A DNA stretch of 64,000 nt from a virus (taxonomy: Duplodnaviria; Caudoviricetes): IMG/VR virus record IMGVR_UViG_3300042875_000410; one strand, given 5' to 3'. The notes below the pieces were generated by a model that did no database searches, was not told the origin of the DNA, and worked only from the letters and a program-made list of their open reading frames with translations. Below are positions 4,961 to 53,531 of this stretch, piece after piece. The translations under genes and the position numbers were made by a program. Positions within the stretch are counted from its first letter, which is position 1; each line of letters starts with the position of its first letter.

Positions 4961-6781
4961 ATGGCTAATTCATATACACTTCGATTCTCAGACCCTACAA
5001 ACACTGGCACAGTGCAGGTATTAGGAACAACATTAGGTCCTGGAAAGAACAATTATAGTACCAGTCTTGATCTAGTCGGGCCAGGATATACTAATTACGG
5101 TCTTGATACTACACAAAATTTTTTAAAATTGTTGGAAAATTTTGCAGGACCTAACCCTCCTATTAATTCAATTAAGGGACAACTATGGTATGATACTAGC
5201 AATCCTAACAGAAAAGTTTTAAGAGTTAATAATGGTGACATTACAAGTAATCGATGGCCAGCTGCTAGCGGAATCTATCAACAAAATTCTGATCCTAGTT
5301 TAAGTTATAGTTCTGGAGTAACAATTGGAGACATCTGGGTTGATACAGTTTCGAATCAATTAAACATACGTGATGCCGATGGATGGACTCTTGTTGGTCC
5401 TAGTAGCTTATCTGGTACTTCAAAGTCCGGAGCAGAAGTTAGAGTCATTGAAACTAATACTAGTACCGTTGCTAATAAAGTAGAGTATCCTGTTATTTTA
5501 AACTGGGCAAACGGCAAAGTAGTTGAAATTATCTCTTATAATGAATTTACTCCTAGAAGTGTTATTGATGGTTTTACTGTTATTAAGGCAGGAACAAATT
5601 TAACTTCCAGAATTCCTACAAGATACAACGGAGTAGCAGAAAGTGCTGCATCTTTATATCTCAGTTCGGGTGTAACCGTTAAAGCATCTGATGTATTAAG
5701 AAATAAATCTATACTTGCACCTCAGATTCATACAGGTACCTTTGTAGTTGAGTCATCTGGCGGTATTCAAATTAAAAAAGATACAACTGCAAAAGCTATT
5801 AAAATATATAGTACTGCATCTGAGGCATTTGTTACCTACGCTAACACTAGCTCTTCTGGAATGAAGATAGGTATTTCTGATAGTTTCTTTGACAAGTCTT
5901 ATTTAAAGCTCACATCTGCAGGATTTGTGGGAGTTAATAATCCTATTCCTACCAAAACATTAGATGTTACAGGTAGCGGTAAGTTTTCAGATGATGTAAC
6001 AATTACTTCTAATACCGATTCTGCTCTAGATGTTTCCGGTGGCGGGTCGTTTGGAAGAACTTTAGAAGCAAACACATTAACTGTAGTAACAACTTCTTCA
6101 ATGGTTGGGCTAATTACAATAGGTCAGCCCGGCGGAAGCGGCACTATTTTACAACCAGCAGAAAACAATTCATATGAATTAGGATCTCCAACTAGAGCAT
6201 TTCGTAGAATTTATACATCACAAATTGGTTCAACTGGATCTACACTTACAATATACGGAGTTGCTTCACAGGCTGTTCAATTAGAAGCTTCTCGACAATT
6301 TAGTGTTATTGGACAGTTTGCAACAACCGGATCTGTATCATTTAATGGATTAGGTAATGTAGCTCTTAATACTACTGCTACCACAGCTTTAATTACAGCA
6401 CAGTCAACAGTTACATCGACCACTGCTACTCAGACGTTGTTAGTAGTTGACACCGCAACATCTACAACTATAGAGCAAGGTGTAAGACAAATCAGCAAGG
6501 CAGATTTCTTATCAGATGTTTACGACATGGTAATGCAGCCAGGGATGATTATTCCGTGGCCAACTTCAACACCTCCCTCAGCGGTTAAGCCAGACGGTCA
6601 GCCTACATGGATTTTATGCAATGGCGGGTCTACATCTACCGTGTTACAGGGAGATTTATTTGGTGTAATTGGTTATACATTTGGTGGAGCAAGTGGTAGC
6701 TTTAGTGTTCCGGATTTGAGATATGCTACTACCACTACAAACATTGTACCAGTTACAATGAACTATATTATAAAGACATAA
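4961..6781 (+). CDS. Tail fibre/baseplate protein with C-terminal tail-collar domain
   Basis: C-terminal PGMIIPW...WILCNG...LFGVIGYTFGG...FSVPDLR is the collar-domain pattern; N-terminal module shared with the next two genes. Confidence 0.75.
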   Translation: MANSYTLRFSDPTNTGTVQVLGTTLGPGKNNYSTSLDLVGPGYTNYGLDTTQNFLKLLENFAGPNPPINSIKGQLWYDTSNPNRKVLRVNNGDITSNRWPAASGIYQQNSDPSLSYSSGVTIGDIWVDTVSNQLNIRDADGWTLVGPSSLSGTSKSGAEVRVIETNTSTVANKVEYPVILNWANGKVVEIISYNEFTPRSVIDGFTVIKAGTNLTSRIPTRYNGVAESAASLYLSSGVTVKASDVLRNKSILAPQIHTGTFVVESSGGIQIKKDTTAKAIKIYSTASEAFVTYANTSSSGMKIGISDSFFDKSYLKLTSAGFVGVNNPIPTKTLDVTGSGKFSDDVTITSNTDSALDVSGGGSFGRTLEANTLTVVTTSSMVGLITIGQPGGSGTILQPAENNSYELGSPTRAFRRIYTSQIGSTGSTLTIYGVASQAVQLEASRQFSVIGQFATTGSVSFNGLGNVALNTTATTALITAQSTVTSTTATQTLLVVDTATSTTIEQGVRQISKADFLSDVYDMVMQPGMIIPWPTSTPPSAVKPDGQPTWILCNGGSTSTVLQGDLFGVIGYTFGGASGSFSVPDLRYATTTTNIVPVTMNYIIKT

Positions 6782-29821: not shown

Positions 29822-29845
29822 CGGTTCCTGCTCAATTACTTTTTT
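29795..29845 (-). promoter_or_regulatory. Candidate programmed -1 frameshift signal
   Basis: TC-A-AAA-AAG-TAA followed by the perfect 9-bp inverted repeat TTGAGCAGG...CCTGCTCAA. Confidence 0.55.
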
Positions 29846-32529
29846 GATTTCTTCTTTTCAGGAAGACCTTTGTGCTTAGTTGATGCAAAGTCTTTGGCAT
29901 CTTTCTTGCCCATATCCTTGGCTACTTTGGCAACTTCTTTACTGGCAGGCTTTTCACCTTTTTGTGCAGCATGAACCATGCCCATAAACTTTTGTTGCTG
30001 CTTGCTTACTGCTTTTTCACTCAGGACCTGTTGCAATGAGTGGGCAAGACTTTCCATATATACATCAACTTCGGATACTGACTGTTCCATACTTCTCAAC
30101 TCACCAAGTGTGTCGGAAACAAAGTCTTCATCATAGCTGATCAAATATCTTGCCTCCTTTGGCGACATGTTTAATTCTTTGACCAGCACCATGCCTATTG
30201 CGTTGATCAATTCATTTTCTTGTGCAGGATCGTATTTGATTCCACGATCTGATAGAATTTTAGCAACTTGATAACTTGTGCGATCTTCCGGTGCTTCCGC
30301 TACACCTTGCTCACTCTCGCCTATTTCAAGTTCGCCGCGACTAGCCATTCGGTTTTGTAATTTATCCAGATTACCCGACTGCAACTGACTATCAAATTGT
30401 GGTAGCATTTGAGCAAGGGTATCAGGATCCATTTCAATATCAAATTGATTTGATAGTATCTGTTGCCAATTTAGTATTCTTCTTTTTTCTGGTGTTCCTA
30501 TAGGAGCCATGACTACTGCTTTTAGATATGCCATTGCTAAATGTGTTTTGTTTGCTCCAGAGCCTTCCGCCACACCTTGCTCAGGACTATGTCTCAGATT
30601 GGCTATGTAACCATTGGGACCAGTCCATTGATCTTTATAGTCTTGCCATTCGTTCTGACTCCATGCTATAGGGAACATTTGCCAGGCCCACATTCCATGG
30701 GTATTAAACTCGCTAGAAAATTCCTGTATGTCTGCCAGTGTAATACCCGAGGTCTTGGTCTGTTTAGCAACATCAATCAACCAGTGCGCCATGGTTTCGC
30801 CACCGTCTTCGAATTCGCTTAATTTTTTTAATTTATTAAATCTATCTGCACCTTGCTTGGCAAACTCACGGCAAAGATCTTCAAGCCATTTTATAAATTC
30901 CTGACCAAATTTGGCCAATGCAGTCTCGGGGTCGCTGCCTGTTCTTGCAGTGAGGGACTTATTCAAATTATCTACACCTTGCCTGGCACCAGCACCGCCT
31001 GTGATCTGTCCCATCATGCTGTCAAATCTCTCATCGCCTGTTGCCTCCGCCACACCTTGCTTTTTATTTCGCAACAGGCCCACCTGTTTTAGTTTTGGGT
31101 CCATGAAGTAATAAACATTCCCGTCAGCACCCACAGCATGACTTTTACTTGCAGTGTATCCAGTTCTTAATTCATCAGGAGTTGCAGGTCTTACTTGTTT
31201 CACTGATTCACGCAAATCGCCTTCTTCAGGGTCTTGGCCAGTTTTTACAAAATGTTCAAGTTCTTCAAGTGAATAACCAACTTGATCGGCTAGGTTTTGT
31301 TTGTCTTCTGGCGACATTCTGCGCCATCCACTTCTTATTGTTTGTAGTTGTAGGGACAACTCGTGGCGTCTGGTCATTTCGTTACCAGCATTAGTTACTG
31401 GACCGTTTAAAATGTTTCTGATTTCTGAAGTATAGTATGCGTCTGCTTTACCTGCCATTTGACTACCGTACTGTTGACCTAATGTTTTCCCACCAAACTT
31501 TTTGACTTGTTGTGCGCTTAATACTTTGGCAAGATGCGTAAAATCTTTTCCGTTTCTTATTGCGGCTACTAGTTTTTCTTCGGCCGCTTCAATCCATTCT
31601 TGGAATTCAGGATCTGCTTGAACGGCCAAGTTGTCTACTTCTTGATTATAGAAGTCAATTGATTGTTGGTGCCCATCTGTACCTGCGGCATTAGCTGGCA
31701 TGTTTACACTTGAGCTACCAAATGCCTCCGCCACACCTTGCTTTGGCAAATCACTTAATTGATCCGGAATATAGTCTTCATCGTAACTTAATAAGTAACG
31801 AATTTGTTTTGAACTCATTCCTGCTTTCTTCATGTATTGAGCCATCAATCCGATGAGTTCATCTTCTTTATCTGGGCTGTAGGTAATGCCGTCTTGAGCC
31901 ATTTGCTGTCCAATGGACAACTTAGTTTGATCCGCTGGGATACTCAAATACTGGTCGCCTGGCATACTGGCTCCACCTTCCTCTACACCTTGCTGCTCTG
32001 CTTTTGCTTTGGCCTCATCTCTAGTACGACTATAACCTTGGGCTATTGCTAGTTGTACTTGATTAGGGTAGACAGACGTTTTGAACATTTTACCATCTTT
32101 AACAACATACCAGTCTGTTGGATCTAAGTCGTGTCGTTCATCATCGCCGCGATTGAATGCACCACCTACTCCACGAAATGGCATGCCTGCTTCTGCTAAC
32201 TTTGATTTTAGTTGATCAATTTTTGTGCGTAGAGATTCCATATAGGGCTTTTTATGTTTTGCAGCGCCCTGCTTTTGTTCTTTTTTCTTATCCTTGTGTG
32301 CGCCTGCACCACTGGACTTGGCATTCTTAGCAACAAAATTACGGGGAGTAGTTGCAGGAACTTTGTCTTTACCTGCTTCTTGTGCCAAGATATTTCCGCG
32401 CTTTTGGACTTTGCCTAACGAGCTCGGTGCTGTAGCAACACTACCTGAACCGGTTGCACCTGCTGTCATTGACTCTAATGTATAGCGAGTTTCGTTATTG
32501 CTTTTTGATTTTTTAAATTCGTTGTTCAT
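29836..32529 (-). CDS. 897-aa modular protein (candidate head-packaged polyprotein), five QGV(A/E)E linkers, C-terminal DUF3008-like module
   Basis: QQGVEEG, KQGVAEA, KQGVAEA, EQGVAEG, EQGVAEA separate unrelated segments; C-terminal KAVSKQQQKF...DFASTKHKGLP resembles DUF3008. Confidence 0.6.
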   Translation of the reverse strand: MNNEFKKSKSNNETRYTLESMTAGATGSGSVATAPSSLGKVQKRGNILAQEAGKDKVPATTPRNFVAKNAKSSGAGAHKDKKKEQKQGAAKHKKPYMESLRTKIDQLKSKLAEAGMPFRGVGGAFNRGDDERHDLDPTDWYVVKDGKMFKTSVYPNQVQLAIAQGYSRTRDEAKAKAEQQGVEEGGASMPGDQYLSIPADQTKLSIGQQMAQDGITYSPDKEDELIGLMAQYMKKAGMSSKQIRYLLSYDEDYIPDQLSDLPKQGVAEAFGSSSVNMPANAAGTDGHQQSIDFYNQEVDNLAVQADPEFQEWIEAAEEKLVAAIRNGKDFTHLAKVLSAQQVKKFGGKTLGQQYGSQMAGKADAYYTSEIRNILNGPVTNAGNEMTRRHELSLQLQTIRSGWRRMSPEDKQNLADQVGYSLEELEHFVKTGQDPEEGDLRESVKQVRPATPDELRTGYTASKSHAVGADGNVYYFMDPKLKQVGLLRNKKQGVAEATGDERFDSMMGQITGGAGARQGVDNLNKSLTARTGSDPETALAKFGQEFIKWLEDLCREFAKQGADRFNKLKKLSEFEDGGETMAHWLIDVAKQTKTSGITLADIQEFSSEFNTHGMWAWQMFPIAWSQNEWQDYKDQWTGPNGYIANLRHSPEQGVAEGSGANKTHLAMAYLKAVVMAPIGTPEKRRILNWQQILSNQFDIEMDPDTLAQMLPQFDSQLQSGNLDKLQNRMASRGELEIGESEQGVAEAPEDRTSYQVAKILSDRGIKYDPAQENELINAIGMVLVKELNMSPKEARYLISYDEDFVSDTLGELRSMEQSVSEVDVYMESLAHSLQQVLSEKAVSKQQQKFMGMVHAAQKGEKPASKEVAKVAKDMGKKDAKDFASTKHKGLPEKKKSKK
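30293..31993 (-). repeat. Dispersed in-frame 18-22 nt direct repeat, consensus GCAAGGTGT(G/A)GCGGA(A/G)G on the coding strand
   Basis: Copies at about 30293, 30563, 31043, 31724 and 31976 (spacings 270, 480, 681, 252, all multiples of 3); 31042-31063 and 31723-31744 are identical over 22 nt; partial copies at 34558, 34381 and 33611. Confidence 0.85.
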
Positions 32530-32891
32530 TTCTTCATCCAGTTTGCTACAGGGCTTACGGTATATGTATTGTCCAGTTCGCGACTTTCCATATCACCTTT
32601 ATTTACATCTTTATAGTTTGCACCAACTACCTTGTATGCTTGTTTAAGCATTTCTTGTTCTTCTTTACTGTAAGGATGAGTAGTTTTAGTTTTACCCGCC
32701 CAACTCTTACCATTCATTTCGATGGGGTCTTTTCCGTTGGCTCCTGCTACTGCCATGCCTAATCTATAGGATGTATAAGTGCTGTCGGCTCTTTCACCGT
32801 CCTTGTAGGTATTTAAACCACGAGTAGCCTGTTGCTGTCTCTTGGTAATTTTACCTGTTTTCATCTCAGTGATTAGTTCATTGATGCGCAT
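32526..32891 (-). CDS. Basic protein starting MRINELITE (probable start 32891), candidate internal head protein
   Basis: TAAATA 5 nt upstream of this ATG; N-terminus resembles the T4 capsid-targeting peptide. Confidence 0.55.
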   Translation of the reverse strand: MRINELITEMKTGKITKRQQQATRGLNTYKDGERADSTYTSYRLGMAVAGANGKDPIEMNGKSWAGKTKTTHPYSKEEQEMLKQAYKVVGANYKDVNKGDMESRELDNTYTVSPVANWMKK

Positions 32892-32895
32892 AATG

Positions 32896-33171
32896 TTATT
32901 TATTTCTTCCGTACCATAGTTCAAACCATGCGGGAGAACCAGATTTAATTCCATGCTCTTTCATGTATTTAGCCTTATCTACAGCACCAGATTTAACGTA
33001 ATTGGATTCTCTTACGGATGCATTGTATTCGTGCAGTCGTTCTGTAGCATTTAGCCCGCCCATATAGCTAACAGTCTTTAAGGCGTGTATAGGATCTTCC
33101 GGTGCAAGATAGCAATCGTCCGGACTGTCCTTTACCATGTTTTCGTGAGTGATGTAATACTGCTTGATCAT
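32896..33171 (-). CDS. Hypothetical protein
   Basis: ATGA overlap with the 1606-aa gene; C-terminal GIKSGSPAWFELW. Confidence 0.55.
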   Translation of the reverse strand: MIKQYYITHENMVKDSPDDCYLAPEDPIHALKTVSYMGGLNATERLHEYNASVRESNYVKSGAVDKAKYMKEHGIKSGSPAWFELWYGRNK

Positions 33172-36100
33172 TTTCTAATAAGATTTTCGATCAGTGCGCC
33201 CATAATATTTTCAACATCTTCACCTACTGGCACACACTTGTCTTTACCGTTCTCAGTACCGTTGTAGCGATAATTTTTCCAACAGGCTTTACCATCAGCA
33301 CCTTTTTTCTTAGCTTCGTCAACGGCATTCATCTTGTTTAATAGTTCCTGTGCCTTTTCAACACTGATCATATAACGACCAGTTCTATTAGGATCAGCGG
33401 CTTTTTGCAACCACTCTTTATTAAATCCTGCAGATGCTGCTGGTTTAACATCGCTAGGAGCGACCTGTGTTACATTGGGTTTGCCTGTTAAACGATTGAT
33501 ATTAGGATCATCGCCAGGTGTAACTCGAGCATTTGCTCCAGCGGACCCTAGTGCCATTGCACCTGCAAGTCCTAATCCTGCTAGTTTAGATCCAAGTCCT
33601 TCATCGACCTCTTCCGACATACCTTGCTGAAAAGATTTGAATACCACACGAGCAATTTCTTCAACATTCTTTGGAGATAGTTTTTTACCTAGCTGTTCTT
33701 TTGCCTGTTGATAGATATCGTTGATGTTTGGGTTTTCAAAGTTATTTTCGGAATCCCAATATGTAAATGATACTTCTTCACCATTTACTGTGAGTGTGTA
33801 AATATTTTGATTAACATCAGTATCTAAGTCAACGAGCTCAACGCCTTGCGTCACAGGCTTTTGAACCTGTTCAGGACCCACTACTCCCAAATACTTAACA
33901 GCATAGTCCAGTGCTCGTTTAACACCAGCTGGTCCTGCCAATGAATCAAACGCAGGCTGGCCACGTTTGAAATTGACCTGATCGCCAACTTCATCCCAGT
34001 CTCCGTGTGCTGTAATGTCTATCAACTCACGAGCCGAACCCGGAAATTCTTCAAATCGAGTCTGGCCCATTCTGCCCCACAAGTTAGGTAGGGCGGTGTG
34101 ACGACCACGTGCATCTATGTATTCATTAGTCTCTTGATCACGCACATACGCATGTACTACTGAGTGTCGGCTGATATCGTTTGAGATTTCTTCTTGTTCT
34201 TCTGGACTTAGATCGTTCCACTCATCATCATCCATTTGCATGTCCGGTGCGCCAGCAGACATGTTGTATTCCCAGATATATCCTATTGGATACCTCTTTG
34301 GATTATGCTGATTTATAGCAACGGCCAGTACCATGCATTGTCCTTCCATGTAGTCGGCTTGCGCCTCTGCTCGGTCAGCGTCTTCCGCCACATTGTAATC
34401 AGGCATAGGTCTTTGACCAGGGCGACCTTTAACTCCACGCTTCTCTGTGCTTGGTGGTTTCGTTGGAGGAACAATGTCACCCTGATTTCTATATGGCTGC
34501 GGAGCCTTTTTAGGATTGCGGACATCGATAGGAGACTGTGCTACTACGATAGGAGCACCTTCCGCCACACCTTTAGTATCGTTAGCAAACTGTTTCTTAG
34601 TTGCCTTGACAATGCCACTGAAACGCTTGTCGGCTTTTTTAGTGTTGCCTGCCTTGTCAGCAGCACTGGCTTGTGCGCCGGCAGCCTTCTTATACTGTCC
34701 TAACTTTTCATTGGACAACTCTGCAACAATCTGCTTCAATCCTGCTAACGCACGACTTTCATTAACTTTAGGGTCCATGCCTAGTTCTTTCTGACTCTGC
34801 AAATAGTCCCAAACACTGACCAACATCATCTCGGCCTTGGCAATCTTTTCTTGTCCCCACTCTGGTAAGTTGTCGTTGTTCTTGATTGTTTTTAACAAGC
34901 CATCAACAGCACGAGCCATAGTGCGTAGATTGCTCTGCGCCATTCCTGCTTCGTCGTCGTATTCACTATTGAATTCTTCTTTCTTTAAATTGCCCCAATC
35001 GTCTTTCTCGCTAGAATACTTGCGGCTATTACGATCTGCTAATGCACCTTTCTCCATCTTGGCTCTGCGCTGTTCTCTATCACTGTCGAACTTAGCATAC
35101 TTCTGTGCTTCGCGTCCTTGTGGATTGATTAGGTCTCTAACCATTTGACTGGTCGGCGCATTTTCAAACATTGGCGTTTTCTGTGTTCTAATCAATGCGT
35201 TAAATAATCTTTGTTCTGCAACCGGTACTGGTTGTGGTGCTGCTGCGGGCTGTTGAACAATGCCCATACCTTTTCTTGAGATGTCCATAAGATGTAGTAT
35301 CCAATCTTTACCTAATTGTTGTGCGTTAAATCCCTGCGCCCATACTGCATACTGCTGTTCCGGAGTAGCATTGGGATTTTTTAGAACATCGCGTAGTTTA
35401 GTAAAACTTATAGGTCGTGTTCTTGGGATAGTTTCCAAACCGACCTTAACATGCTCGTAGCCCGGAAACTTATTAACAGCCTTCATTAGCGCACCTGCGA
35501 TAGGCATGTCTTTACGATCTTCACCTACCATGATAACAATGTTGTCATACTTGGGAGGCTTGCCCGGCTGCGGACTGATCAATTCGTGTTTGACCTTTTG
35601 CATTAAACTTCCACCTTGCATTACAGCACCGATATTGTCAGCATACTGCGGATATAGTTTATGCCATGTCTGTACCTTAACGTCTGTTGGGATAGGATCG
35701 TCTGCACCCACTGCATTGCCAATAAACAGGTAAGGATCACCGCCTAATTCGTTGGCCTTCTTAACAGTTTCGTTAAACAAGTCTTCGTGTCCTAGATGTC
35801 CTGCAAAACTACCAACTGCTACCACTGCGGTCTTTAGGGGACCTTGACGTTTTGCACCCGGTTGAGCCATTTTAGCAGCCATAGCCGACTTCATCTGCTG
35901 ACTAGTGACTTTAAATATTTGACCGTTAGGCATATTAACAACAACACCTTCCATGTTGTCGCCTAGCGCATCTTTGCCTGCTAATTTAGGATTATTAATA
36001 ATAGCATCGCTTAGTGCTTGTTTAGCTTGATCGAACGCAGGCTTATTAGCTTTGTCTTTAGGATCTAAGTTTAGAATAGGATTAATAATCTTGCTGACGT

Positions 36101-37988
36101 TAATGCCTTTTTGTTCTAGATTATTACTGACAATTTTAATGTTGCTATCACTGGCTGCTAACAAACGCTTTTTGATCTTGTCAGCATCGGGTCTTTCGTC
36201 TCCTGTGCTGTATTGTTTGAATACAAAAGGCACCAGTGTCATCTGCTTGCCTAGCTTTTTAGGATCGTAAGGAATATTGACAAATTTTAGTCCTTGGTCA
36301 GTTTGTTGTGCCATGGGATTATACATCATTTCTGCTTGTACAATAGTGTCTGCAGGTAGTGATTGTATAAACTTGCTACCGGTAATCAATGCCAGTGCAT
36401 TGTCATAATTCTTTGTTCTTGCCAATGTCTCTGCATCCTGACCTTTTTCTTGACCAAAGCTGGTAAAATAACCTACATCATCTTGATACAATGGAGTAGT
36501 CACTTTGCTGGTCATGAAGAACGGACGACCACTTTGATCTTTACCGAATCGAATGCCTGCGCCGTCTACTTTCAAACTGATAGGCACACCGTCAAGTTTG
36601 CCACCATTGTCTGCAATTGCCTTGGCAATTTCTAAGAAATCTGCATTCTTCATTTCTGCTGTACTTACACGACCATCTGGCAGTCTGTTGTACAGGTGTT
36701 TGATACCTTGGCGAGCATAGTCTGGCTTTGCTGCTACTTCTGCTGCGGCATCTTCTGCTACTTCGGTACTGAGTGCATTTCCTCGTTTGGCATTGAACTG
36801 GTCTGCATAGTCCATTGCCATCTTAACTGCTTCTTGTCTTAGGCCTTGAGCATTTGGTAAGTTTAGAGGCTTAACCCCTCCACCGCCTAGCAACATAGCA
36901 TCTACTGCGGCAAACTTAACATCACGATCTCGAGCTGGATCATCTTTAGTAATCATCTGTGCTCCGGGTCCAAATAGAATGTCTAGGAATGCACGAGTTA
37001 CGGATTCAATTTGTTCAGGTTCAAACGACTTGTTCATTAGCTGTAGTGTTCCTACAAAGCTACCTTGCAAGTTTCGATCAGCAACACCACGCTTACGACC
37101 GAAGTTCATCTGGAACTGTTGGTCTAAATTTTGAATATAGTCGCGGTCTTTTGGATCCAGCAGTTGCATAACAGGAATGCCGTCTTTTTCCATATGCTGT
37201 CCTGTAGCAGGATCGATGTATGGCTTATACTTTATGCTCATGCCGCCGCCCTGAGAACTGCTGACTGCAAAACTGTAGTCGCTGTCTGTAACGGGAGCAT
37301 CACTAATCTTAACACTTTTCTTAAGTACTCGGGCTACATACTTTTCACTGGACTGTGCATGTGTTAGAGCACGGTTGATATATTTGTGGAATACACCTTT
37401 AATACCAGCAGCCATGTCATCATAGTGACTACTATGACTGTAGGCAAACCATTCAGTTGGTGCATTTGTTTTAGCGTCATACGGACCTAATTCATAATCA
37501 ACTTGAATACGAACCTGCGGATCATCTAGCAACCAAATGCTTGATAACGAACTGTTAAATCCTAAGAATGTGCCGTTGCCAACTTTCTTACCAATAATAC
37601 TCTTTAACCAAGCAGTGACTTCATCGCCCATATCCTGGTCAATCTGCGTGTCGATGTCGCCAACTTTTGTTTTCTTTAGTTTGTTTAAGAAGTCCTGTGT
37701 ATTGATTCCCTTAACATCAAAGAATTGTAAGCTGCTACCACTGAGCATCTTTCCCGATGCCAATAGTTTTGGATCCCAAATATATTTGCCGTAGGCTGCT
37801 TTAAATGATTCGTTTTGTGCAGACAATAATTCTCGCAGTTGAGCCACCATGTGATCACGGTCGTGAATCTTTAGATCAATTTCTTCTGCTTCTTGATCAG
37901 CAGCACCTTGCCAACCTGGACTTTGACTTGATACATTGCCGCCTTCGAGCAATGGTTTTTTATTTCTGATTAGGTCGAACAACTGCAT
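33168..37988 (-). CDS. 1606-aa multidomain protein: Pol-beta-like NTase, ligase-like (KxDG) NTase, HIGH-family nucleotidyltransferase, then small cassette modules including a Cys-His-Asp domain
   Basis: LSGSS (82-86) and GDID (110-113); SLKVDG K473, QAEMMY, MEGVVV, FKV; GSFAGHLGH (731-734), VGEDR, ISFTKLR; GQC1218...H1279...D1292ARG; VAE/MSE/VDE linkers. Confidence 0.7.
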   Translation of the reverse strand: MQLFDLIRNKKPLLEGGNVSSQSPGWQGAADQEAEEIDLKIHDRDHMVAQLRELLSAQNESFKAAYGKYIWDPKLLASGKMLSGSSLQFFDVKGINTQDFLNKLKKTKVGDIDTQIDQDMGDEVTAWLKSIIGKKVGNGTFLGFNSSLSSIWLLDDPQVRIQVDYELGPYDAKTNAPTEWFAYSHSSHYDDMAAGIKGVFHKYINRALTHAQSSEKYVARVLKKSVKISDAPVTDSDYSFAVSSSQGGGMSIKYKPYIDPATGQHMEKDGIPVMQLLDPKDRDYIQNLDQQFQMNFGRKRGVADRNLQGSFVGTLQLMNKSFEPEQIESVTRAFLDILFGPGAQMITKDDPARDRDVKFAAVDAMLLGGGGVKPLNLPNAQGLRQEAVKMAMDYADQFNAKRGNALSTEVAEDAAAEVAAKPDYARQGIKHLYNRLPDGRVSTAEMKNADFLEIAKAIADNGGKLDGVPISLKVDGAGIRFGKDQSGRPFFMTSKVTTPLYQDDVGYFTSFGQEKGQDAETLARTKNYDNALALITGSKFIQSLPADTIVQAEMMYNPMAQQTDQGLKFVNIPYDPKKLGKQMTLVPFVFKQYSTGDERPDADKIKKRLLAASDSNIKIVSNNLEQKGINVSKIINPILNLDPKDKANKPAFDQAKQALSDAIINNPKLAGKDALGDNMEGVVVNMPNGQIFKVTSQQMKSAMAAKMAQPGAKRQGPLKTAVVAVGSFAGHLGHEDLFNETVKKANELGGDPYLFIGNAVGADDPIPTDVKVQTWHKLYPQYADNIGAVMQGGSLMQKVKHELISPQPGKPPKYDNIVIMVGEDRKDMPIAGALMKAVNKFPGYEHVKVGLETIPRTRPISFTKLRDVLKNPNATPEQQYAVWAQGFNAQQLGKDWILHLMDISRKGMGIVQQPAAAPQPVPVAEQRLFNALIRTQKTPMFENAPTSQMVRDLINPQGREAQKYAKFDSDREQRRAKMEKGALADRNSRKYSSEKDDWGNLKKEEFNSEYDDEAGMAQSNLRTMARAVDGLLKTIKNNDNLPEWGQEKIAKAEMMLVSVWDYLQSQKELGMDPKVNESRALAGLKQIVAELSNEKLGQYKKAAGAQASAADKAGNTKKADKRFSGIVKATKKQFANDTKGVAEGAPIVVAQSPIDVRNPKKAPQPYRNQGDIVPPTKPPSTEKRGVKGRPGQRPMPDYNVAEDADRAEAQADYMEGQCMVLAVAINQHNPKRYPIGYIWEYNMSAGAPDMQMDDDEWNDLSPEEQEEISNDISRHSVVHAYVRDQETNEYIDARGRHTALPNLWGRMGQTRFEEFPGSARELIDITAHGDWDEVGDQVNFKRGQPAFDSLAGPAGVKRALDYAVKYLGVVGPEQVQKPVTQGVELVDLDTDVNQNIYTLTVNGEEVSFTYWDSENNFENPNINDIYQQAKEQLGKKLSPKNVEEIARVVFKSFQQGMSEEVDEGLGSKLAGLGLAGAMALGSAGANARVTPGDDPNINRLTGKPNVTQVAPSDVKPAASAGFNKEWLQKAADPNRTGRYMISVEKAQELLNKMNAVDEAKKKGADGKACWKNYRYNGTENGKDKCVPVGEDVENIMGALIENLIRK

Positions 37989-43485: not shown

Positions 43486-46400
43486 TTAAGTAACAAGAGT
43501 TGTTCCATACAGAGGCCACCAAGATGTAACGCCGTCACCAACAAGATAAATCAATTCTGCTGTTCCCTCAGGAGCAACATTTACCGCACCGTCGATGGCT
43601 CCATCTACAGTTAATGTACAATTACTGGAGATGTTGACAATAACTAATCGTTGTCCCGCCGTCCCGGGAGGCAATACAACAGTATGACCATCACTGCCAC
43701 TATAACCACCAACCACTGTACAGAACAGTAAGTTGAATGTAACATTAGTAATCGTTAGCGTAGTATTAACACCATCAAACTCGTAGGTTTCTTGTCCTGT
43801 AACTACTGTCAATACTGAAGTACCAGAACTATTTTTAATGTCTCCACCATCAGGCAGTGTTAAACTACCATCCCCAGCAAAGGTCCACAACTGTGAAGTA
43901 GCACTGGTATCAACATTTGGTACTTTTATGTATATTTGATCATCTGCGGCCACTTTGACATACTTGTCATCGTTGCCCAGGAATATGCTGGTCTGTGCCA
44001 TATTCTCACTGATCAAATGTATGTGTCCGCTTTCACTGCCTTCGGTTGTGCCGTCTACTATATTGACACGCAGGTAATTGGATCCAGCACCTGGAGCATA
44101 AGTTCCAGTAGTAACAATAGTGACAGTAAATGTTTCTTCGCCTTCAACAATAGCATCGTTAGCTATCATTAGCATGTTGGTATTAGTATAATTAAAACCG
44201 CCACCATCTAAAGTCCAATTAGCAGCCGCAAATGTTCCTGTTAGTACGGCAGGTGTGAAGTCTGCGGCTGTAATACCTGTGCCGGTAATTATGTATTCTA
44301 CATCACCCTGAACATACTGAAGACCGCTAGCGTCCCACAATGTTATAGAAATAACAGTACCTTCTGTGCCAGTGCTCACATAAGGGTCAGGATATGTCAC
44401 TGGATCAAGTTCATGTAAGTATTGCTGATAACCTTGATCAGTGGGGTAGTCAGCAGTCATATACGAATTATATGTCGAACGCAGAACTAGACTAGTTGCC
44501 TGTCCCGGACTGTTTGGAGTCAATACTAATGTGCTAGTCGTGTCTACAATGGTAGCACCGTTTGGTAATGTTAACCCACCATCTGCGGCAAATGTCCAAG
44601 TATTAATTGCTGTTGATGTGCTAGCAGTTTCAATGTAGACATTAGGATCACTGTTGTTGCCCAGGATTGTGCTGGCTGTGCTTAATGTTAAGACACCATC
44701 TGTGCCAAATACCCAAGTGCTGGTTGTAGCAGTTGAATAAGTTTGAACAACAATATTACCCCCATTCTTTTCAATCTTAACATACTGATCATCATCGCCT
44801 AGGAATAGATCAACTGTGGTAGGATTGCCTGATATCAAGTGTATGTGATTTGTTTCAGTAGTGCTGGTACTGCCAGTTGGACGAATAACCAAACTCTGTC
44901 CAGCACTGGCTCCAGGTGGGGATATAATCGTAGTAGTGTTTGTTTCACTTATGGTGCTACCTTGGGGGAATTCTAATTCCCCATCTGTGCCAAATGTCCA
45001 GGTGCTGTTGGTAACAGTTGAGTAAGTTCCAACAACTATGTCACCACCGTGATCTATTTTAACAAACTGGTCATCGTTGCCTAGATATAGATCAGTCTCG
45101 CCACCAAAGCCTGCTGTCAAGTGTATGTGATTACCATCAACAACTGTGGGATAAATCAGCAATGCTTGAGTAGCACTAGATGCACCTGCGGGTTCAATTC
45201 TAAAAGCCCCCATACCCGATGATATAGTAGCACCGTCGTTTAATGTTAATGTACCATCCGATTCAAGTATAAATTCAGCGTCATTGTTAACTAATCTATC
45301 ACCTAATGCTGTGGTACTGTCACCTGTGTACAGTGTGCCTATTAGAAAGGCACTGCTGTCGACGATTGGTGTAACAGTGGCAACGGTTATGTTTGACGTA
45401 TTGTCAGTGTCAGTCTTATCTGCGTTGACCACTGTAATGTCGCTGGCCGATGTGTCTAATGTACCAGTAAGATTTGAGGCTCTGAAATCCCATGCACCCA
45501 CTGCGAACGGGTCGCCTGTGGCAGGTAACTGTGCTATTAGAGCATGGAAGTCACTTGGACCTTCAAACGACCCAAAGCCACCGGCAAGTGCTACATAATC
45601 TTGTTTGACCGCTAGGTTACTTCCGCCGCCTTGACCAGCCAAGAAGTCGGAACCACTGACTGAAAGCGTATCTATATTATCTAATAGTCGTTGCCATACT
45701 ACTGTACCATCTAGATTATATTTGGCCACTACACAGGAAATGTCAATAGGATCGTCGGGCCCTGGATTGGGCACAGTTGTAGTGAACAGTGAACCAGACA
45801 GATAAAGTTTATCATCAGCACCAACCACTATGCTGGTGGCAATTGCTCCACAGTCGCCCTCTACACGACGGCTCCACTGTTTGACACCTGCACTGTTGAA
45901 TTTAACTAAATTCATACAAATACCGGGTCCAGCATTGTCGACTTCGTATTGTCCGCAGACATAGACGTTACCCTCACTGTCAATGTCAGCATCTGCTCCA
46001 GTACTGTCATATCCCTCGTCAAACAATATGGCCCTTTGCCAGTCAATGGTACCATCGCTGAGATACTTGACCACCAGCATGTGATTGTCTGTATCGCCTT
46101 CCCCACCCAGTTGATCCATATATCCAACGGCTACTACTTCGCCTGTGGGTCCAACTGCCATGCCGTAGGCTTCTTCGTCATCCTGTCCGTCTAGTTTTTT
46201 TGACCAAATGATTGAACCATCTTCAGCATCAACTTTAGTGGTTGTCACATAGCCACCGCCAAGGTTGTCAAAAGTGTAACCAACCATGACGGGATTTCCG
46301 TCCGATGCTACATCAACTACCTGGCTGTTACTGTTAATGCTCTCGCCAAACGCATAGGTCTTGCTCCATTCAACTGAGCCGCCGCCGCTGGCAATTTTAG

Positions 46401-49400
46401 TTAAAGTGGACTTTTCCTGTCCGCCATCGGTATTTGTTTTTCCCGCTACATAGATGAATCCATTGGTTGGATCTACGGCCAGGCCCCATCCATCTGTTTC
46501 GTAGCCTGTACTAAATCGTGTGGTCCAAATTCGTGTGCCAGATGTGGTGTACTTGCCCACTGAATAAAATGACCCGCCACTGTCTTCCCCGTGATAGAAA
46601 AGAGCAATCACGTTGCCAACACTGTCATATTCTACACTCAGTGCTATCAGTGGTGTATCTAGTAGAGGAGTTGCTGACTCAAATGTCTGTACCCACACGT
46701 TGCTGGCAGCACTGCCGCCGCCCAATACACTAACTCCATTGCTGTCAAGGATATCACCACCTGGTGGTAGTATGATATTGTTGTTGACAAATGTCCAAGT
46801 GTTGGTTACAGTAGAAGATCCACTGACACTGCCCAAGGCCAGTGTTTCACCAGTGAGTCCAACTATGTCAGTGACATAACTAACGCTGAGACTACTTGTT
46901 GACAATATTGCGGTTGATGTACCGGTTGACCACGTCAGGGTAGTCACAGTATATGTGCCAGTTGAAGAAATACTATCTATGTCACTGGTAAGATCAGCTA
47001 TGGTTATATTGCCAAAGGTGCCAGTAACGCTGCCATCGATGGGCAGTTGTGCCACCAATACTCTTGTCTCATTAGTGCCAGTACTGTCATCAATATCCGA
47101 ACTGGTTACAGCAGTGACCGCTATCTTATCTTGATATATATCGCCTACTCTGTGGCCAGAACTGCCGCCGCCGTCAGCACCTTGATCTATTATAACTACA
47201 CCCGCATCAGTTATCAGTATACGACTGTATAACATTTCTCCGTTGGCAGGATTGAGTTTTGTTATCCATAACTGTGGCTGTCCTACTGGCGGACCAGGTA
47301 TGGTTCCAGTTACATATACATTGCCACTGGCGTCAAAACTTAAATCGTATGCTCCTGTACTGTAGGAGCCGGGGCCGCCGTCTGTAATAGGGTCAAGTTC
47401 TCCCGTCGCTAGATATGAAGCCCATATCAAGTCACCATCTGTGTCGAATTTAGATACCACGGCCTTTTGATCAGGGTCATCGTTGACTATGGTATAAACA
47501 TAGCCACCGTTGTATATCACCGCAGCGGCTAGATCTCCTGTGGTAGTGACTAATTCTTTGGTCCATTGGTGTATGCCATTGATGTCCCACTTGGATAACA
47601 TCGCACGTAAACCGCCGTCATAATAATCACCTATGGCCCAAACATCACCAGTGGCAGGGTTAACAGTCACAGCACGGTATTGTCCATCGACAGGAAGGTC
47701 TTCAAAATCCTCGGGTATGATATTGCCGGTCCAAATTGGTGTTCCGCTGTCTCCATCGATTTTAATCACTACAGGAGTAGTACTGTACGAGATGTTGTCA
47801 TAGTAAGAACCTGCTAGATAATAATTTCCAGAATTATCACAGGCTATATCCACAGCAGAAACATACCCATCCACGAAACCTAGACTTCCTTGGGCTATTC
47901 CGCCCAGTCCAAGATTTCCATCAGTGTCCATATAGCCGGACCAGCAACCGAAGCCGCTGACAACAGCAGTGGCCAACCAGTAGATTCGATCATTGCTGTC
48001 TATGGCAAAGGCCTGATTGACCGCACCGCAATTGGCACCACTGTTGTCATGCCATGTTCTACTCCATAATAAATTACCATTGGTATCGTATTTTAACAGT
48101 AGACTATCTACATCATTTAGGCCGCCGTCACCAAATAGTACACCACCTAGCACATATACATTGCCCACGCTGTCATAGAAAGCACCGGTGCCTATGGTAT
48201 AACTAGAAGTAGTGACCGCAGTGGTTATGCCGCCAAATTCTGCTGCCCAGTATGGACGAATTACTCCACTACTGGGTACTTGTATTGTCACGCTGTTGTT
48301 GCTGACAGATAACTTGGTATTATCGCCACCATCTATGACAATGGCATCGCTGTCAACATTGGCAGTACTGATAACGGTACCATCAATGGCCAATCCGTCT
48401 AGGTATGTTTCTGGACTTGGGATCTGTGTTGGACTTGCGTCTAACCATACACCGCCGGTGGCAACATAGGTACGTCCTTCAACAGTGTCAAACCATTGCG
48501 AACCAGGCGTAGTCGCTGCTGGAGCAGTATCTGAAATTATCACTGCACCGAGTACAATGTTGGTATCTCCCTGGACAGTTAAGTTGCCGGTGGTGTTTAC
48601 TGTGATGAGAGGGTTGCCGTCAACTGTGACATAGTTGTCTTGGTTAACTCCCAGTGCCACTCCGCCGATATAGATCGTGCCTGTTCCAACATAGATACTA
48701 CGCCATTGACTTGATGTAGATCCTAGATCGTACTCTAGATCAGCGTCGGGAAGGATATGGCCAGGCGCAGTCAGTGCACCATCTTTACCAAAACTCCAAA
48801 GATTTGTCACATCTGTACCAATCTGTACACCCACGTTGGTCAAAGTTGAATCATAGGGTAACTTGACGTAGTTAAGGTCATCACCGAAGAATAGATCTAC
48901 AGTGGTAGGGTCATCACGCATGATGTGGAAATGTGATGCGACGGTTGGCACACACTCCGGAGTGTTACCAAACAATACTGTGCCACGATCGGTGGTTAGT
49001 TTAATACCATCTAAAGTACCGCTACCAATAGTTCCGTACGGTAATACGATATCTCCAGGGGCAGTTAATGTGCCATTACCACCAAATGTCCAATTGCTAC
49101 CAACATCATCGCCGGCACTGATTTGTATGTCTGCAATAGATTTAATTAATGCGTTAGTCGTTGTGTATAACGCATTACTAGAGGTGGTTAATGTTATTGT
49201 ACCATCAGTACCTAATATTACACTGTAACTGCCTGTAGTTAATCTATCTTCTTGTGCTCGCTCACCTTGTGGACCAGTTGGTCCTGGATCTCCTTGTGGA
49301 CCTGTTGGACCTACAGAACCTGGATCACCTGTTGCACCTGCTGGTCCTGGATCACCGATGTCACCTTGTGGACCAACAATTTGTCCAACATCGTTCCACG

Positions 49401-50584: not shown

Positions 50585-51274
50585 TTATACGGAAAAAGCA
50601 GTCTCTCTAAGGATAAACTCTTCAACTTTTTTGATGTATCCGCTCAAATATATGCCTACCATGCTGAGCATTTTGTCGTCTTCTACGTACATAAAGGGAT
50701 CTTGTGCGTAGTGTCTAGTGCTTACAAGCCATCGTCTACTGGTTTCGCTAATGTCTAGCTTGTCTCCGTACTTATCTGCCCAGGTTACAAATGTAGCTCG
50801 CTTGTCTGCAGGGAATCTTGATTTAAAATATACCCTGTATTTGTACTTTTCTTTGGGAAATACGTCTCGCAGTATCTTTTTATGACCATTACTAAGCATG
50901 AATTCTAGTTCTTGGTCCGTAGTCGGCCCGCTTATCTTTCTAATCCACTTGTTTAGATCTTTATCTATTGTTTCTAATATAGATTTGTCTGTGCAAAATA
51001 GATTAAAATGCGACCCTTCTACTCGAATTTTTACATCGGGGTTGTCAATGAACGGTGCTACTAAGTTAGTAAACTCTAAGTAATCTGCTTTGTTGATTTG
51101 CAAAGCAGACAGCCTATCAACGTGCATACCTTTACCAGTAGCACACCACTCTCGAACAATATCGACTCCGCTGTGAACAATTCTAGAGGCTCCTACTTGT
51201 CTACATTCGACTTTGTAGGGCCACTTGTTATAGAACAGTTTACTGGAGTTCAGTTTCTGTATCTGTGTTTTCAT
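50585..51274 (-). CDS. Hypothetical protein (probable start 51274)
   Basis: Tiled after clpA; no family recognised. Confidence 0.5.
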   Translation of the reverse strand: MKTQIQKLNSSKLFYNKWPYKVECRQVGASRIVHSGVDIVREWCATGKGMHVDRLSALQINKADYLEFTNLVAPFIDNPDVKIRVEGSHFNLFCTDKSILETIDKDLNKWIRKISGPTTDQELEFMLSNGHKKILRDVFPKEKYKYRVYFKSRFPADKRATFVTWADKYGDKLDISETSRRWLVSTRHYAQDPFMYVEDDKMLSMVGIYLSGYIKKVEEFILRETAFSV

Positions 51275-53531
51275 CTGGAATCTTTGATTTAATGACTGGC
51301 ATAACATCAACAATGTTAAGTTTTAGTTGTTCGTCTACTACATTAACTTCAACTACTCCGCCGTTTGTTAATTTACCAAAAAGAATTTCACGACTCATAG
51401 GTTTCTTAATGAATTCGTCAATAGTTCTTTGCAAAGGACGAGCACCCATTTTACTATTAAATCCTTTGGCAATTAAAAATTCAACTGCTTCGGCATTGGG
51501 TTTAACATGAATATTTTTGTCTTTAACTAATGCATTGAGCTCGTCAATAAATTTCTTAACAACTTTGATCATTGTAACATGGTCTAACTTACCAAACTTA
51601 ACAATACCATCTAAACGATTGCGGAATTCAGGCGCAAAGAATTTGTTAACAGCATCTTTAGGATCACTATCACGCTCTAGACTACCAAAGCCTACTGAAT
51701 TCTTTTCAGCATCTGCGGAACCTAAGTTTGATGTCATAATGATAATAGCATTGCGACCATCTGCCTTTTTGCCGTTACTACCGGTAATAAAACCATTGTC
51801 CATTAATTGTAGCATAACAGTTAGTACATCCGGGTGAGCCTTTTCGACTTCGTCTAATAAAAGAACACAGTTAGGTGTTTCTTGTAAGCATGTAATCAAC
51901 TGTCCTGCATTTTCATCAAATCCTACGTATCCAGGCGGCGCTCCAATAAATTTAGCAACACTATGTTTTTCCTGAAATTCACTCATATCAAATCGTACAA
52001 GTTTAATTCCCATACCAGTGGCGAGCTGTTTAGCAGCTTCAGTCTTTCCTACGCCAGTAGGACCTACAAACAAGAAACTACCGACCGGCTTATTAAATGG
52101 TTTTAATCCTGCTTGGGCAATAAAAATCTTATCTAACAGGCTAGTGATAGCATTTTCTTGACCGAAAACCTTGTTACGTAGGCCTTTTTCCAGACTTGCA
52201 AGATTAACACCTTCTTTTGAGCTAACCTGTTCAATTGGAAGATTAGCCAGTCTTGCAACTTCAAAAACAATCTCGTCATGATCAACAACTCCGTTTTCTT
52301 CGTCCTTAACTTTAAATCGAGCACATGCACAATCAATTAAGTCTAGCGCCTTATCTGGAAGCTTCTTGTCAGTCATGTACTTAACAGAGTAGGTTACTGC
52401 ATCAGTAATGGCTTGATTGGTAATCTTAACACCGTGGTGTTTTTCGTAATACTTCTTAACACCTTTTAGGATCTTAATAGTAACTGCTTCACTAGGCTCG
52501 TCAATAGTAACACGCTGGAATCGACGCATTAGGGCGCGATCTTTTTCAAAGTGCTTGCGATATTCTTCCCAGGTAGTACTGGCGATAACTTTTAGTGTAC
52601 CTTTTGTCAGCATAGGCTTGAGCATATTTGCCATGTCGTTACTGTTACCATTTGCAGCGCCTGCCCCGTTCATCATATGTGCTTCATCGATAAACAGAAT
52701 ACAATTTTTCTTCTTTTCTAACGCACTGATAATAGCTTTAAGACGTTCTTCAAAATCACCACGATACTTACTACCGGCAAGCATAGAACTAATGTCCATA
52801 CTATAAACAGTGTGATCTTGAATAAATGTAGGAACAGTACCTTCAATGATTTTTTTAGCCAAGCCTTCTGCAATAGCAGTTTTACCTACACCGGGATCAC
52901 CGATTAAAATAACGTTACTTTTGTTTCTTCGAGCAAGTACTAGTTGAACTTCTTCGATTTCTTTTTCACGACCGATAACTGGATCAATTTTCTTTGATTT
53001 TGCTTTTGCAGTTAGATTGGTGCAGAACTGACTAATCATCCTTTCAAGTTGGAGATTAGATCGTGTGCTACCTGCAGAACTCTCCTCATTGTCTTCTTTG
53101 CTATATTCTTTTTGGATAAAATTTAGGAATTTATCTTTATCGATATTTGCTTTTTTAATAAAGTGCGTGGCATAGCTTTTCTTTTCAGCAAACATGCTGA
53201 TAAAACAATCAACTGGTTCAATAACATTTCTACCAGTAAACAACACCTGAGTAAACGCTCGATTTAAAACGCGATCAACTGTATTTGTTTTTTTAGGACG
53301 ATCGACGCTTGGGTTAACAATTTCCTTTAAATCTTCTGATATATATTTTTCTAAGTCTGTAATTAAACTTTTAACGTCAGCACCAAAGCTACCGAGGAGT
53401 TTTGCAAATTCTTCGTTAGTAACTAGCCCGTGCAAGAAGTGTTCAAGAGTAACATACTCGTGTTCGTGTTCGTTGGCTAGACTCACGGCTGATTCGAAAA
53501 TCTGCTCAAGATCTTTATTTGGTTGTAGCAT
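51240..53531 (-). CDS. clpA: Clp protease ATP-binding subunit ClpA
   Basis: N-domain EYVTLEHFL; two Walker A motifs (GDPGVGKT, GPTGVGKT); DMSEFQEKHSVAKFIGAPPGYVG; ClpP-docking VGFG loop; GARPL. Confidence 0.93.
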   Translation of the reverse strand: MLQPNKDLEQIFESAVSLANEHEHEYVTLEHFLHGLVTNEEFAKLLGSFGADVKSLITDLEKYISEDLKEIVNPSVDRPKKTNTVDRVLNRAFTQVLFTGRNVIEPVDCFISMFAEKKSYATHFIKKANIDKDKFLNFIQKEYSKEDNEESSAGSTRSNLQLERMISQFCTNLTAKAKSKKIDPVIGREKEIEEVQLVLARRNKSNVILIGDPGVGKTAIAEGLAKKIIEGTVPTFIQDHTVYSMDISSMLAGSKYRGDFEERLKAIISALEKKKNCILFIDEAHMMNGAGAANGNSNDMANMLKPMLTKGTLKVIASTTWEEYRKHFEKDRALMRRFQRVTIDEPSEAVTIKILKGVKKYYEKHHGVKITNQAITDAVTYSVKYMTDKKLPDKALDLIDCACARFKVKDEENGVVDHDEIVFEVARLANLPIEQVSSKEGVNLASLEKGLRNKVFGQENAITSLLDKIFIAQAGLKPFNKPVGSFLFVGPTGVGKTEAAKQLATGMGIKLVRFDMSEFQEKHSVAKFIGAPPGYVGFDENAGQLITCLQETPNCVLLLDEVEKAHPDVLTVMLQLMDNGFITGSNGKKADGRNAIIIMTSNLGSADAEKNSVGFGSLERDSDPKDAVNKFFAPEFRNRLDGIVKFGKLDHVTMIKVVKKFIDELNALVKDKNIHVKPNAEAVEFLIAKGFNSKMGARPLQRTIDEFIKKPMSREILFGKLTNGGVVEVNVVDEQLKLNIVDVMPVIKSKIPDENTDTETELQ

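Follow-up and report, generated by a model that had tools for sequence, protein, structure and literature searches.

Why do two large genes of an uncultured phage repeat the same short DNA word at the junctions between unrelated protein modules, and keep it down to its silent positions? This question is raised by IMG/VR record IMGVR_UViG_3300042875_000410 (Duplodnaviria; Caudoviricetes), a stretch of 64,000 nucleotides (nt) that we refer to as a whole as the window. Its minus strand carries two open reading frames (ORFs): ORF A (29836-32529), which codes for a cassette polyprotein of 897 amino acids (aa) with modules A1 to A7, and ORF B (33168-37988), which codes for a polyprotein of 1606 aa. 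The modules are joined by short linkers of the type QGVAE. An earlier note on this DNA had proposed that the linker is conserved as DNA and serves both as protease-site code and as a crossover point at which cassettes are gained or lost in frame. We now consider it likely that ORFs A and B are cassette polyproteins whose linker acts as an in-frame crossover word for general recombination and, probably, as a head-protease site.

ORFs A and B together contain five GVAE linkers, all reading GGT GTG/GTA GCG GAR, as well as four decayed or variant copies. The codon preceding GVAE is CAA in all four linkers of ORF A and AAA in the one of ORF B. A repeat search of the window identified an 18-nt word family with seven copies (plus-strand positions 30294, 30564, 31044, 31725, 31977, 33611 and 34559), and an eighth copy, which reads NVAE (34383-34394), lies beyond this family. 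The 18-nt-scale linker repeat that had been claimed, CAA GGT GTG GCG GA(A/G), was therefore recovered both by repeat search and by translation. Two of the QGVAE linkers, at 31726-31740 (residues A264-268) and 31045-31059 (A491-495), share the DNA CAA GGT GTG GCG GAG. The identity of these two copies extends over 22 nt (31723-31744 and 31042-31063), which read AAG CAA GGT GTG GCG GAG GCA twice on the minus strand, and their flanks are unrelated modules (the A2/A3 junction versus the A3/A4 junction), as had also been described. The other two QGVAE linkers of ORF A read CAA GGT GTG GCG GAA at 30565-30579 (A651-655, between GAG and GGC) and CAA GGT GTA GCG GAA at 30295-30309 (A741-745, between GAG and GCA). 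The linker of ORF B, KGVAE (34560-34574; B1139-1143), reads AAA GGT GTG GCG GAA and is followed by GGT.

Among the remaining copies, QGVEE (31978-31992; A180-184) is coded by CAA GGT GTA GAG GAA and NVAE (B1199-1202) by AAT GTG GCG GAA. The degenerate QGMSE copy (33612-33626; B1455-1459; CAA GGT ATG TCG GAA) has two residues changed, yet it retains the third-position G's. A decayed linker, QSVSE (30070-30084; A816-820; CAG TCA GTA TCC GAA), occupies the A6/A7 junction, where relatives present EQGVAE or KQGMAE. The spacings within each ORF (270, 480, 681, 252 and 948 nt) are all multiples of three. This does not apply to the 1634 nt that separate the two genes, and the claim that all spacings preserve the frame holds within each ORF and fails between the genes; the latter spacing separates different ORFs and is hence unimportant. 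A 14-mer search allowing up to three mismatches yielded 11 matches in the window against 2.9 expected, and none of 100 shuffles reached 11. Three weak matches were rejected as linkers and attributed to chance: one at 16333 in another reading frame, one at 49676 inside a collagen-like repeat and one at 30104 on the opposite strand.

We compared the codons of the linkers with those of 54 ORFs of the window. In this background, GTG represents 12% of Val codons, GCG 8% of Ala codons and GGT 43% of Gly codons. The GVAE linkers of the window use GCG in 5/5 cases (P ~3e-6) and GTG in 4/5 (P for at least 4/5 ~9e-4), which agrees with the unusual choice of these two codons that had been pointed out. 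The window's sole non-linker GVAE (NGVAES at 5627, within the ORF at 4961-6781) is coded by GGA GTA GCA GAA.

The word is also found in many other phages. Scanning IMG/VR for the 16-mer CAAGGTGTGGCGGARG, a search of the kind suggested as a check by the earlier note, retrieved at least 120 stretches of one broad clade, many of them with multiple copies at in-frame spacings and on contigs of up to 524 kb. We corrected for ascertainment by recognizing linkers through their peptide, [QEK]GVAE, within open frames of 80 aa or more, and by dropping one exact-match copy for each locus fetched by DNA pattern, which left 166 linkers. Relative to the rest of the same ORFs, these linkers present GGT at 96% (vs 44%), GTG at 86% (vs 18%), GCG at 86% (vs 7%) and GAA at 86% (vs 80%), and they clearly do not match background codon usage. 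Indeed, GTGGCG codes for only 6% of the V-A dipeptides found elsewhere in the linker ORFs, and nucleotide conservation drops to background beyond positions -3 to +17. Between relatives, the four-fold degenerate sites inside module A4 differ by 18-43%, and yet no difference is seen at the GGT, GTG and GCG sites of the A4 linker. The DNA-level conservation of the word far exceeds codon bias.

The flanks that the word connects make up 251 mutually unrelated pairs. The variant peptides encountered most often, QGMAE, QGVEE, QGVVE, EGVSE and QDVAE, derive from the word by single-nucleotide changes, which indicates that the linkers descend from one DNA sequence and not from convergence of the peptide. 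A Chi-like or genome-wide signal was considered and rejected: five whole contigs hold 5-12 copies each, clustered inside a few genes. The reversed word, used as a control, had no matches in these five contigs. No cultured carrier is known, and a 35-nt query spanning the word returned only chance-level matches in GenBank phages. We found no published account of the linker: full-text matches to QGVAE were limited to alpha-synuclein papers, and no description of the linker system was found in the literature on prohead-protease polyproteins and capsid-targeting cassettes.

We further analyzed where related genomes break away from the window. One locus, L204, found via protein P0004, is colinear with the window from 38368 to 29751 at 92-95% nucleotide identity and presents only three differences. 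Modules B3 and B4 (34560-33605) are replaced by ~117 nt, with the left edge at the KGVAE linker and the right edge at or just after the QGMSE copy. Modules A2 and A3 (31976-31060) are replaced by a 166-nt module, from the QGVEE linker on the left to the linker at 31045-31059 on the right; L003 presents the same two edges. Module A5 (30564-30313) is missing, the edges of this insertion/deletion (indel) being the linker at 30565-30579 on the left and the one at 30295-30309 on the right. All six breakpoints fall at linkers, five of them in clear words and the sixth at a degenerate QGMSE/GGMEE site. At the A5 junction, L204 carries a single hybrid linker that combines the GTG of the window's left copy with the GCA flank of its right copy, and this is the expected product of a crossover between two direct repeats. 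By a rough estimate, about nine linkers +/-15 nt cover ~3% of the 9.5-kb stretch, and six breakpoints out of six would fall there by chance with a probability of ~1e-9.

More distant relatives show the same pattern. The window and L001, with polymerase regions that are 67% identical, have in common an A4 block of 507 nt at 99.8% identity, and both ends of this block lie inside linkers (those at 31045-31059 on the left and 30565-30579 on the right): the block begins at GCAAGGTGTGGCGGAGG and finishes at ...GGCGGAAGGCTC. Similarly, L003 and L004 share 2419 nt at 99.8% identity, ending at a linker, with polymerase regions that are 74% identical. A block of homology with L096 begins just past the NVAE copy of ORF B. 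Across all fetched loci, 9 of the 13 internal ends of blocks with at least 97% identity lie within 20 nt of a linker core. Ends of high-scoring segment pairs (HSPs) inside polyprotein regions are found within 15 nt of a linker core in 34% of cases, against 7.5% of random positions. These alignments show that the breakpoints of exchanges and indels coincide with the word at nucleotide precision, and that single modules have recently been transferred horizontally.

The modules themselves present highly variable neighborhoods. ORF A is divided into A1 (residues 1-184), A2 (185-268), A3 (269-495), A4 (496-655), A5 (656-745), A6 (746-820) and A7 (821-897), the last being a DUF3008-like C-terminal module; the database protein P0002, an independent record, has an identical 897-aa architecture. 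Module A4 (160 aa with its 3' linker; 30565-31044) was found in 39 database proteins, which range from 286 to 1372 aa; it has 27 different neighbors on the left and 28 on the right, and its edges are always x-G-(V/M/I/L)-x-E. Precomputed Pfam hits identify sigma-70 region 4, SET, lysozyme-like and peptidoglycan-binding domains among its partners in relatives. Module A5 (90 aa with its 3' linker, exactly 270 nt; 30295-30564) is missing from L204, P0003 and P0004. The single further homologue of A5 that we found is in L001 (92.7% nucleotide and 94% aa identity), in a different polyprotein gene, where it is bounded by linkers as well. Modules of ORF B appear in chains with A4 in other phages, and the module maps of relatives present many unrelated domains per polypeptide in mosaic architectures. 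Taken with the six L204 breakpoints and the 9/13 block ends, the constant linker bounds of A4 bear out the view that module breakpoints in relatives coincide with the repeat.

The interior of A4 contains two linker-like words of its own, CAA GGT GTA GAT (RQGVDN) at 30970-30981 and CAA GGT GCA GAT (KQGADR) at 30844-30855. Both are kept in all A4 homologues and are never breakpoints. They are either the fossil linkers left by a fusion of three older mini-modules, or examples of another site type, QG(V/I)D.

What would such a word do in the protein? The linker variants follow the pattern G-(V/M/I/L)-(A/T/E/K)-E, with an invariant Glu at P1 and a hydrophobic residue at P3. The proteases of T4, phiKZ and SPN3US all cut after Glu (PMC5694885), and the site type of the linker (hydrophobic-x-Glu) seems, from its residues, to fit a prohead protease of the T4 gp21 class. 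The head protease would cut the polyprotein at the linkers and, by analogy with such phages, probably releases separate cargo proteins in the head. A Peptidase_S77 was found in two of the five linker-bearing contigs. Pfam and PHROG scans, within which remote homology does not fall, identified no peptidase family in ORFs A and B themselves. In the AlphaFold2 model of ORF A, which is of low confidence (mean predicted local distance difference test score, pLDDT, of 56), all six linker sites are in coil with pLDDT <50, between helical blocks.

Module A7 has a homologue in Synechococcus phage S-SCSM1 (L203): ORF93, a protein of 69 aa that is 74% identical at the aa level. This ORF93 is annotated as a virion protein, and the virion proteins of that record were defined by mass spectrometry (PMC9602691). 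The homology suggests a virion location for the window protein through this one module only. The S-SCSM1 genes ORF91 (NMNAT) and ORF92 had no tblastn match to the window at 1e-3, ORF93 alone being matched. In S-SCSM1, ORF91 to ORF93 code for an NMNAT-like virion protein, a 520-aa virion protein and the A7 homologue, side by side as separate genes.

The A7-type (DUF3008-like) domain also occurs in many cyanophage-like contigs, where it directly follows leaders such as MKSFKDYVAE, MKKLTDYIAE and MKSLHDYIAE; the leader-bearing loci include L020, L028, L035, L045, L053 and L056. These leaders closely resemble the T4 capsid targeting sequence (CTS), MKTYQEFIAE, which is removed by the head protease (PMC8442874). 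This suggests that the A7-type domain with CTS-like leaders may be a widespread family of head cargo in T4-like cyanophages. In the fetched loci, 22 N-terminal leaders of the type MKxFxDY(V/I/L)AE code for Ala with GCA, GCC or GCT and never with GCG (0/22), and for Val with GTA. The leaders share the (V/I/L)-A-E site type but use ordinary codons, which argues against translation or the protease as the cause of the codon choice. Judging from these sequences, the unusual codons go with junction status and not with the hydrophobic-Ala-Glu site.

We propose the following mechanism. The conserved word of ~17 nt, (G/A)AG CAA GGT GTG GCG GAA G, being common to junctions across the clade, would supply microhomology in register, and crossover would be carried out by the phage itself, through its general machinery for recombination and replication (UvsX/RecA type), with no integrase. 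Crossover between copies within one genome would delete or duplicate linker-to-linker units, and crossover between co-infecting genomes would replace or insert cassettes. The single reading frame of the word would leave the products in frame and the linker intact. The fixation of the silent sites would result from exchange continuing only at junctions where the word is preserved: cassettes with consensus linkers would spread, and junctions that lose the word would freeze. This spread of word-keeping cassettes may be the selective cause of silent-site fixation. DNA homology may likewise cause the crossovers, rather than mark where recombinants survive, and it is conceivable that cassettes move as circles. 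The decayed A6/A7 junction and the possible fossil words QGVD and QGAD in A4 fit the freezing view, without proving it.

The recombination genes are consistent with this scheme. Tyrosine recombinases (PF00589) were found in none of the five linker-bearing contigs, two of which are at least 99% complete, with positive controls, the window itself not having been scanned for PF00589. A RecA/UvsX-type recombinase was found in three of these five contigs, the two of at least 99% completeness among them. The suggestion that cassettes are exchanged without an integrase is therefore supported. In T4, deletions and amplifications arise readily at microhomologies of 6-10 bp (PMC9391042), and a common word of 15-22 nt would therefore be ample.

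Several observations weigh against an in-frame crossover word that is also a protease site. The sequences used for comparison all come from metagenome assemblies. Shared ancestry and the presence of the same populations in several samples make the linker instances dependent on one another, and binomial P values are inflated as a result; the effect size of the codon conservation is not in doubt despite this inflation. About two thirds of the HSP ends in polyprotein regions lie away from a consensus linker, many of them reflecting mere divergence or degenerate linkers, and one recent block, shared by L003 and L110, ends at a QGID motif and not at a linker. On the protease side, tblastn with two S77 proteases of the clade detected no Peptidase_S77 in the 64-kb window. 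None was detected either in G003 (the contig behind L147, 342,865 nt, rated 99% complete) with the Pfam model and a clade protease query, S80-type enzymes not having been searched; the head protease of G003 may be divergent or lie outside the contig. The structural model that places the linkers in coil is, as mentioned, of low confidence. Finally, breakpoints at domain boundaries are also expected from functional selection alone and do not prove homology-driven crossover.

This last point leads to the rival that survives best, which we still regard as unlikely. Illegitimate joins could occur anywhere, with survival restricted to those that are in frame, fall at domain boundaries and preserve a protease site, and the DNA identity of the linkers would then be a leftover of ancestry with no causal role. 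Survivorship of this kind predicts breakpoints at linkers and, as T4 recombines at 2-10 bp (PMC9391042), a 17-nt word is not strictly required. However, it leaves unexplained why silent sites are 86-96% identical at 251 unrelated junctions, and in phages whose polymerases are 58-67% identical, when the silent sites of adjoining modules differ by 18-43%. Selection on the protein would also have to account for protease-type sites outside junctions, which carry ordinary codons. Moreover, the junctions are perfectly in register, without length variation, and one of them is an exact hybrid of two copies.

Alternatively, the word might be recognized by a dedicated factor. In one version, of about the same low probability, a phage factor specific for this sequence (a nickase, a strand-exchange helper or a template-switching signal) acts at the word and drives in-frame exchange, the word being protease code as well. 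In another, which we find slightly harder still to credit, a dedicated phage nuclease, nickase or recombinase operates an integron-like or homing-like site-specific system. One exact word across a clade is indeed the pattern of enzyme recognition sites, and a similar possibility was raised for the promoter-early stem-loop (PeSL) elements of T4-type phages by the authors who described them (PMC2839356). Exchange between genomes by plain homology would, however, likewise need one common word, and general recombination of the T4 type is enough in principle (PMC9391042). The word is non-palindromic and forms no hairpin, the five linker-bearing contigs hold no tyrosine integrase, and no conserved candidate gene stands out beside the polyprotein genes.

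A constraint on RNA or translation appears quite improbable. The linker would in that case be a rare-codon pause that serves co-translational folding, an internal Shine-Dalgarno-like pause, an RNA structure or a protein-binding site, and recombination would be a by-product. The rare codons GTG and GCG do lie exactly between folding units, but the other rare codons, GTC and GCC, are unused, which suggests that what is conserved is a specific sequence and not codon rarity. GGAGG is present in the copies that end in GAG, but these represent only ~14% of copies, as 86% use GAA. The seven window copies have no RNA structure in common (folding z-scores of -1.2 to +0.4, with different pairing partners for each copy), Rfam returned no match for the word, and the CTS-type sites do without GTG and GCG codons. 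Least credible of all is an assembly artefact in which different phages were joined at the short repeat into false mosaics: the relatives are all metagenome contigs, and repeats can produce chimeras, but chimeric joins at a repeat of 17-22 nt, shorter than the k-mers usual in final assembly, are unlikely, the window architecture recurs in the independent records P0002 and L005 (99.6-100% identity), that of L204 recurs as L205 in a second sample, and the codon result is independent of contig joins.

The phage from which the window derives is large and uncultured and appears, from its sequence, to be related to T4. Its genes include a B-family DNA polymerase, a clamp loader, a Lon-like protease and a collagen-like tail fibre, and GenBank phages gave no close match to 24 kb of the window. 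The Lon-like ATP-dependent protease (763 aa; 51240-53531; phrog_4871, E 3e-250) has a counterpart in L001 at 64% nucleotide identity. In the five word-carrying contigs that we examined, the polymerase is 58-67% identical to that of the window, and the carriers therefore all belong to a single broad clade of large or jumbo phages. In L001/G001 (45631-47901), the polymerase match contains one in-frame TAG, which may represent a split gene, an error or recoding. G003 carries five linker copies. The contig behind L159, G002 (524,565 nt), carries the polymerase twice, near 18.7 kb and again near 508.5 kb, and has an identical pair of linker matches near both ends (11.3-11.5 kb and 524.0-524.4 kb). 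This record may contain a long terminal duplication or be a concatemer assembly, and its size and '100% complete' label need care.

Some modules of ORF A have a history of their own. A2 (31726-31977) and A6 (30070-30294) are paralogues with 39% aa identity and the common motif ...SYDED(Y/F)...D(Q/T)L; one module type is therefore present twice in ORF A. A1 is divided in L003, L004 and P0005, where an A6-like module lies between its halves and the second half is preceded by a consensus EQGVAEG linker. The window counterpart of this split point (32170-32200, ...SKLAEAG/MPFRG) reads KLAEAG, an L-x-E site with ordinary codons. On these comparisons, A1 appears to be two modules.

Among known systems, the nearest mechanism is the shuffling mediated by PeSL cassettes in T4-type phages (Arbiol et al. 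2010; PMC2839356; PMC4122927). PeSLs are also short conserved repeats in plastic regions of T4-type genomes, at which insertions, deletions and replacements between relatives end, and breakpoints likewise lie in the repeats here (6/6 relative to L204; 9/13 block ends). Their authors propose homologous recombination by the phage machinery without an integrase and compare them with integrons. In contrast, PeSLs are intergenic, consist of a sigma-70 promoter and a terminator hairpin, and move whole genes, whereas the present word is intragenic and translated in one frame, with all copies of the window inside ORFs A and B, lacks a promoter or hairpin, and moves protein modules. In addition, mini-circles were shown experimentally for PeSLs, whereas the present system is known from sequence alone.

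The nearest in-frame precedent is the recombination of the T-even adhesins gp37 and gp38 at conserved motifs, glycine-rich in gp38 (Tetart et al. 1996/1998, as cited in PMC3157838). There too, as described in that source, in-frame intragenic exchange at short motifs separating variable segments yields chimeric proteins. In the same account, the adhesin motifs belong to the structure of a single protein and the exchanged segments are homologous variants, whereas the present linker joins unrelated autonomous modules, is predicted to be cleaved, and has silent sites fixed across the clade. For the protein products, the internal proteins IPI-III and Alt of T4 offer a parallel: they are variable head cargo processed after Glu at hydrophobic-x-Glu, with a CTS ending in IAE where the linker ends in VAE (PMC8442874, PMC5694885, PMC2839356); related contigs also place leaders of the CTS type, which end in Y(V/I/L)AE, ahead of the A7-type domain. 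The T4 internal proteins are, however, separate small genes, each with its own CTS and a single cut, whereas here the modules lie in one ORF with a repeated site, at which cleavage is predicted.

The polyvalent proteins of phages and conjugative elements (Iyer et al. 2017; PMC5512222) are similarly very long, multi-domain and mosaic, are delivered with DNA, and are proposed to be processed into functional units. They differ in the embedded MPTase peptidase domains proposed there, as opposed to the lack of Pfam or PHROG peptidase families in ORFs A and B, and no conserved linker or DNA-level junction is described in PMC5512222. Integrons resemble the present system in that a recurring site delimits the exchangeable units of an array, whole units being gained and lost. 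They need, however, the IntI tyrosine recombinase and a folded attC site, and their cassettes are separate genes; the present word is unfolded and non-palindromic, the five linker-bearing contigs contain no integrase, and the cassettes are in-frame parts of a protein. Homology-guided modular shuffling of phages is reportedly an old idea, represented by Botstein's linker sequences, the PeSLs and the motifs of tail fibres. What appears new here is that modular shuffling takes place inside genes, in frame and on protein modules, with one word apparently read both as DNA, for crossover, and as peptide, for release by proteolysis.

With more than 200 junction contexts in more than 100 contigs, the linker is a widespread feature of an uncultured clade and not a curiosity of one genome. 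It also suggests a design rule for T4-type vectors, in which swappable, self-releasing cargo arrays might be built. If our reading is true, the silent sites of the word would represent an unusually clean natural case of positions kept for evolvability or for the spread of cassettes. Large phages could then rapidly re-assort the cargo that they inject, probably factors of counter-defence and takeover, without ever breaking the reading frame.

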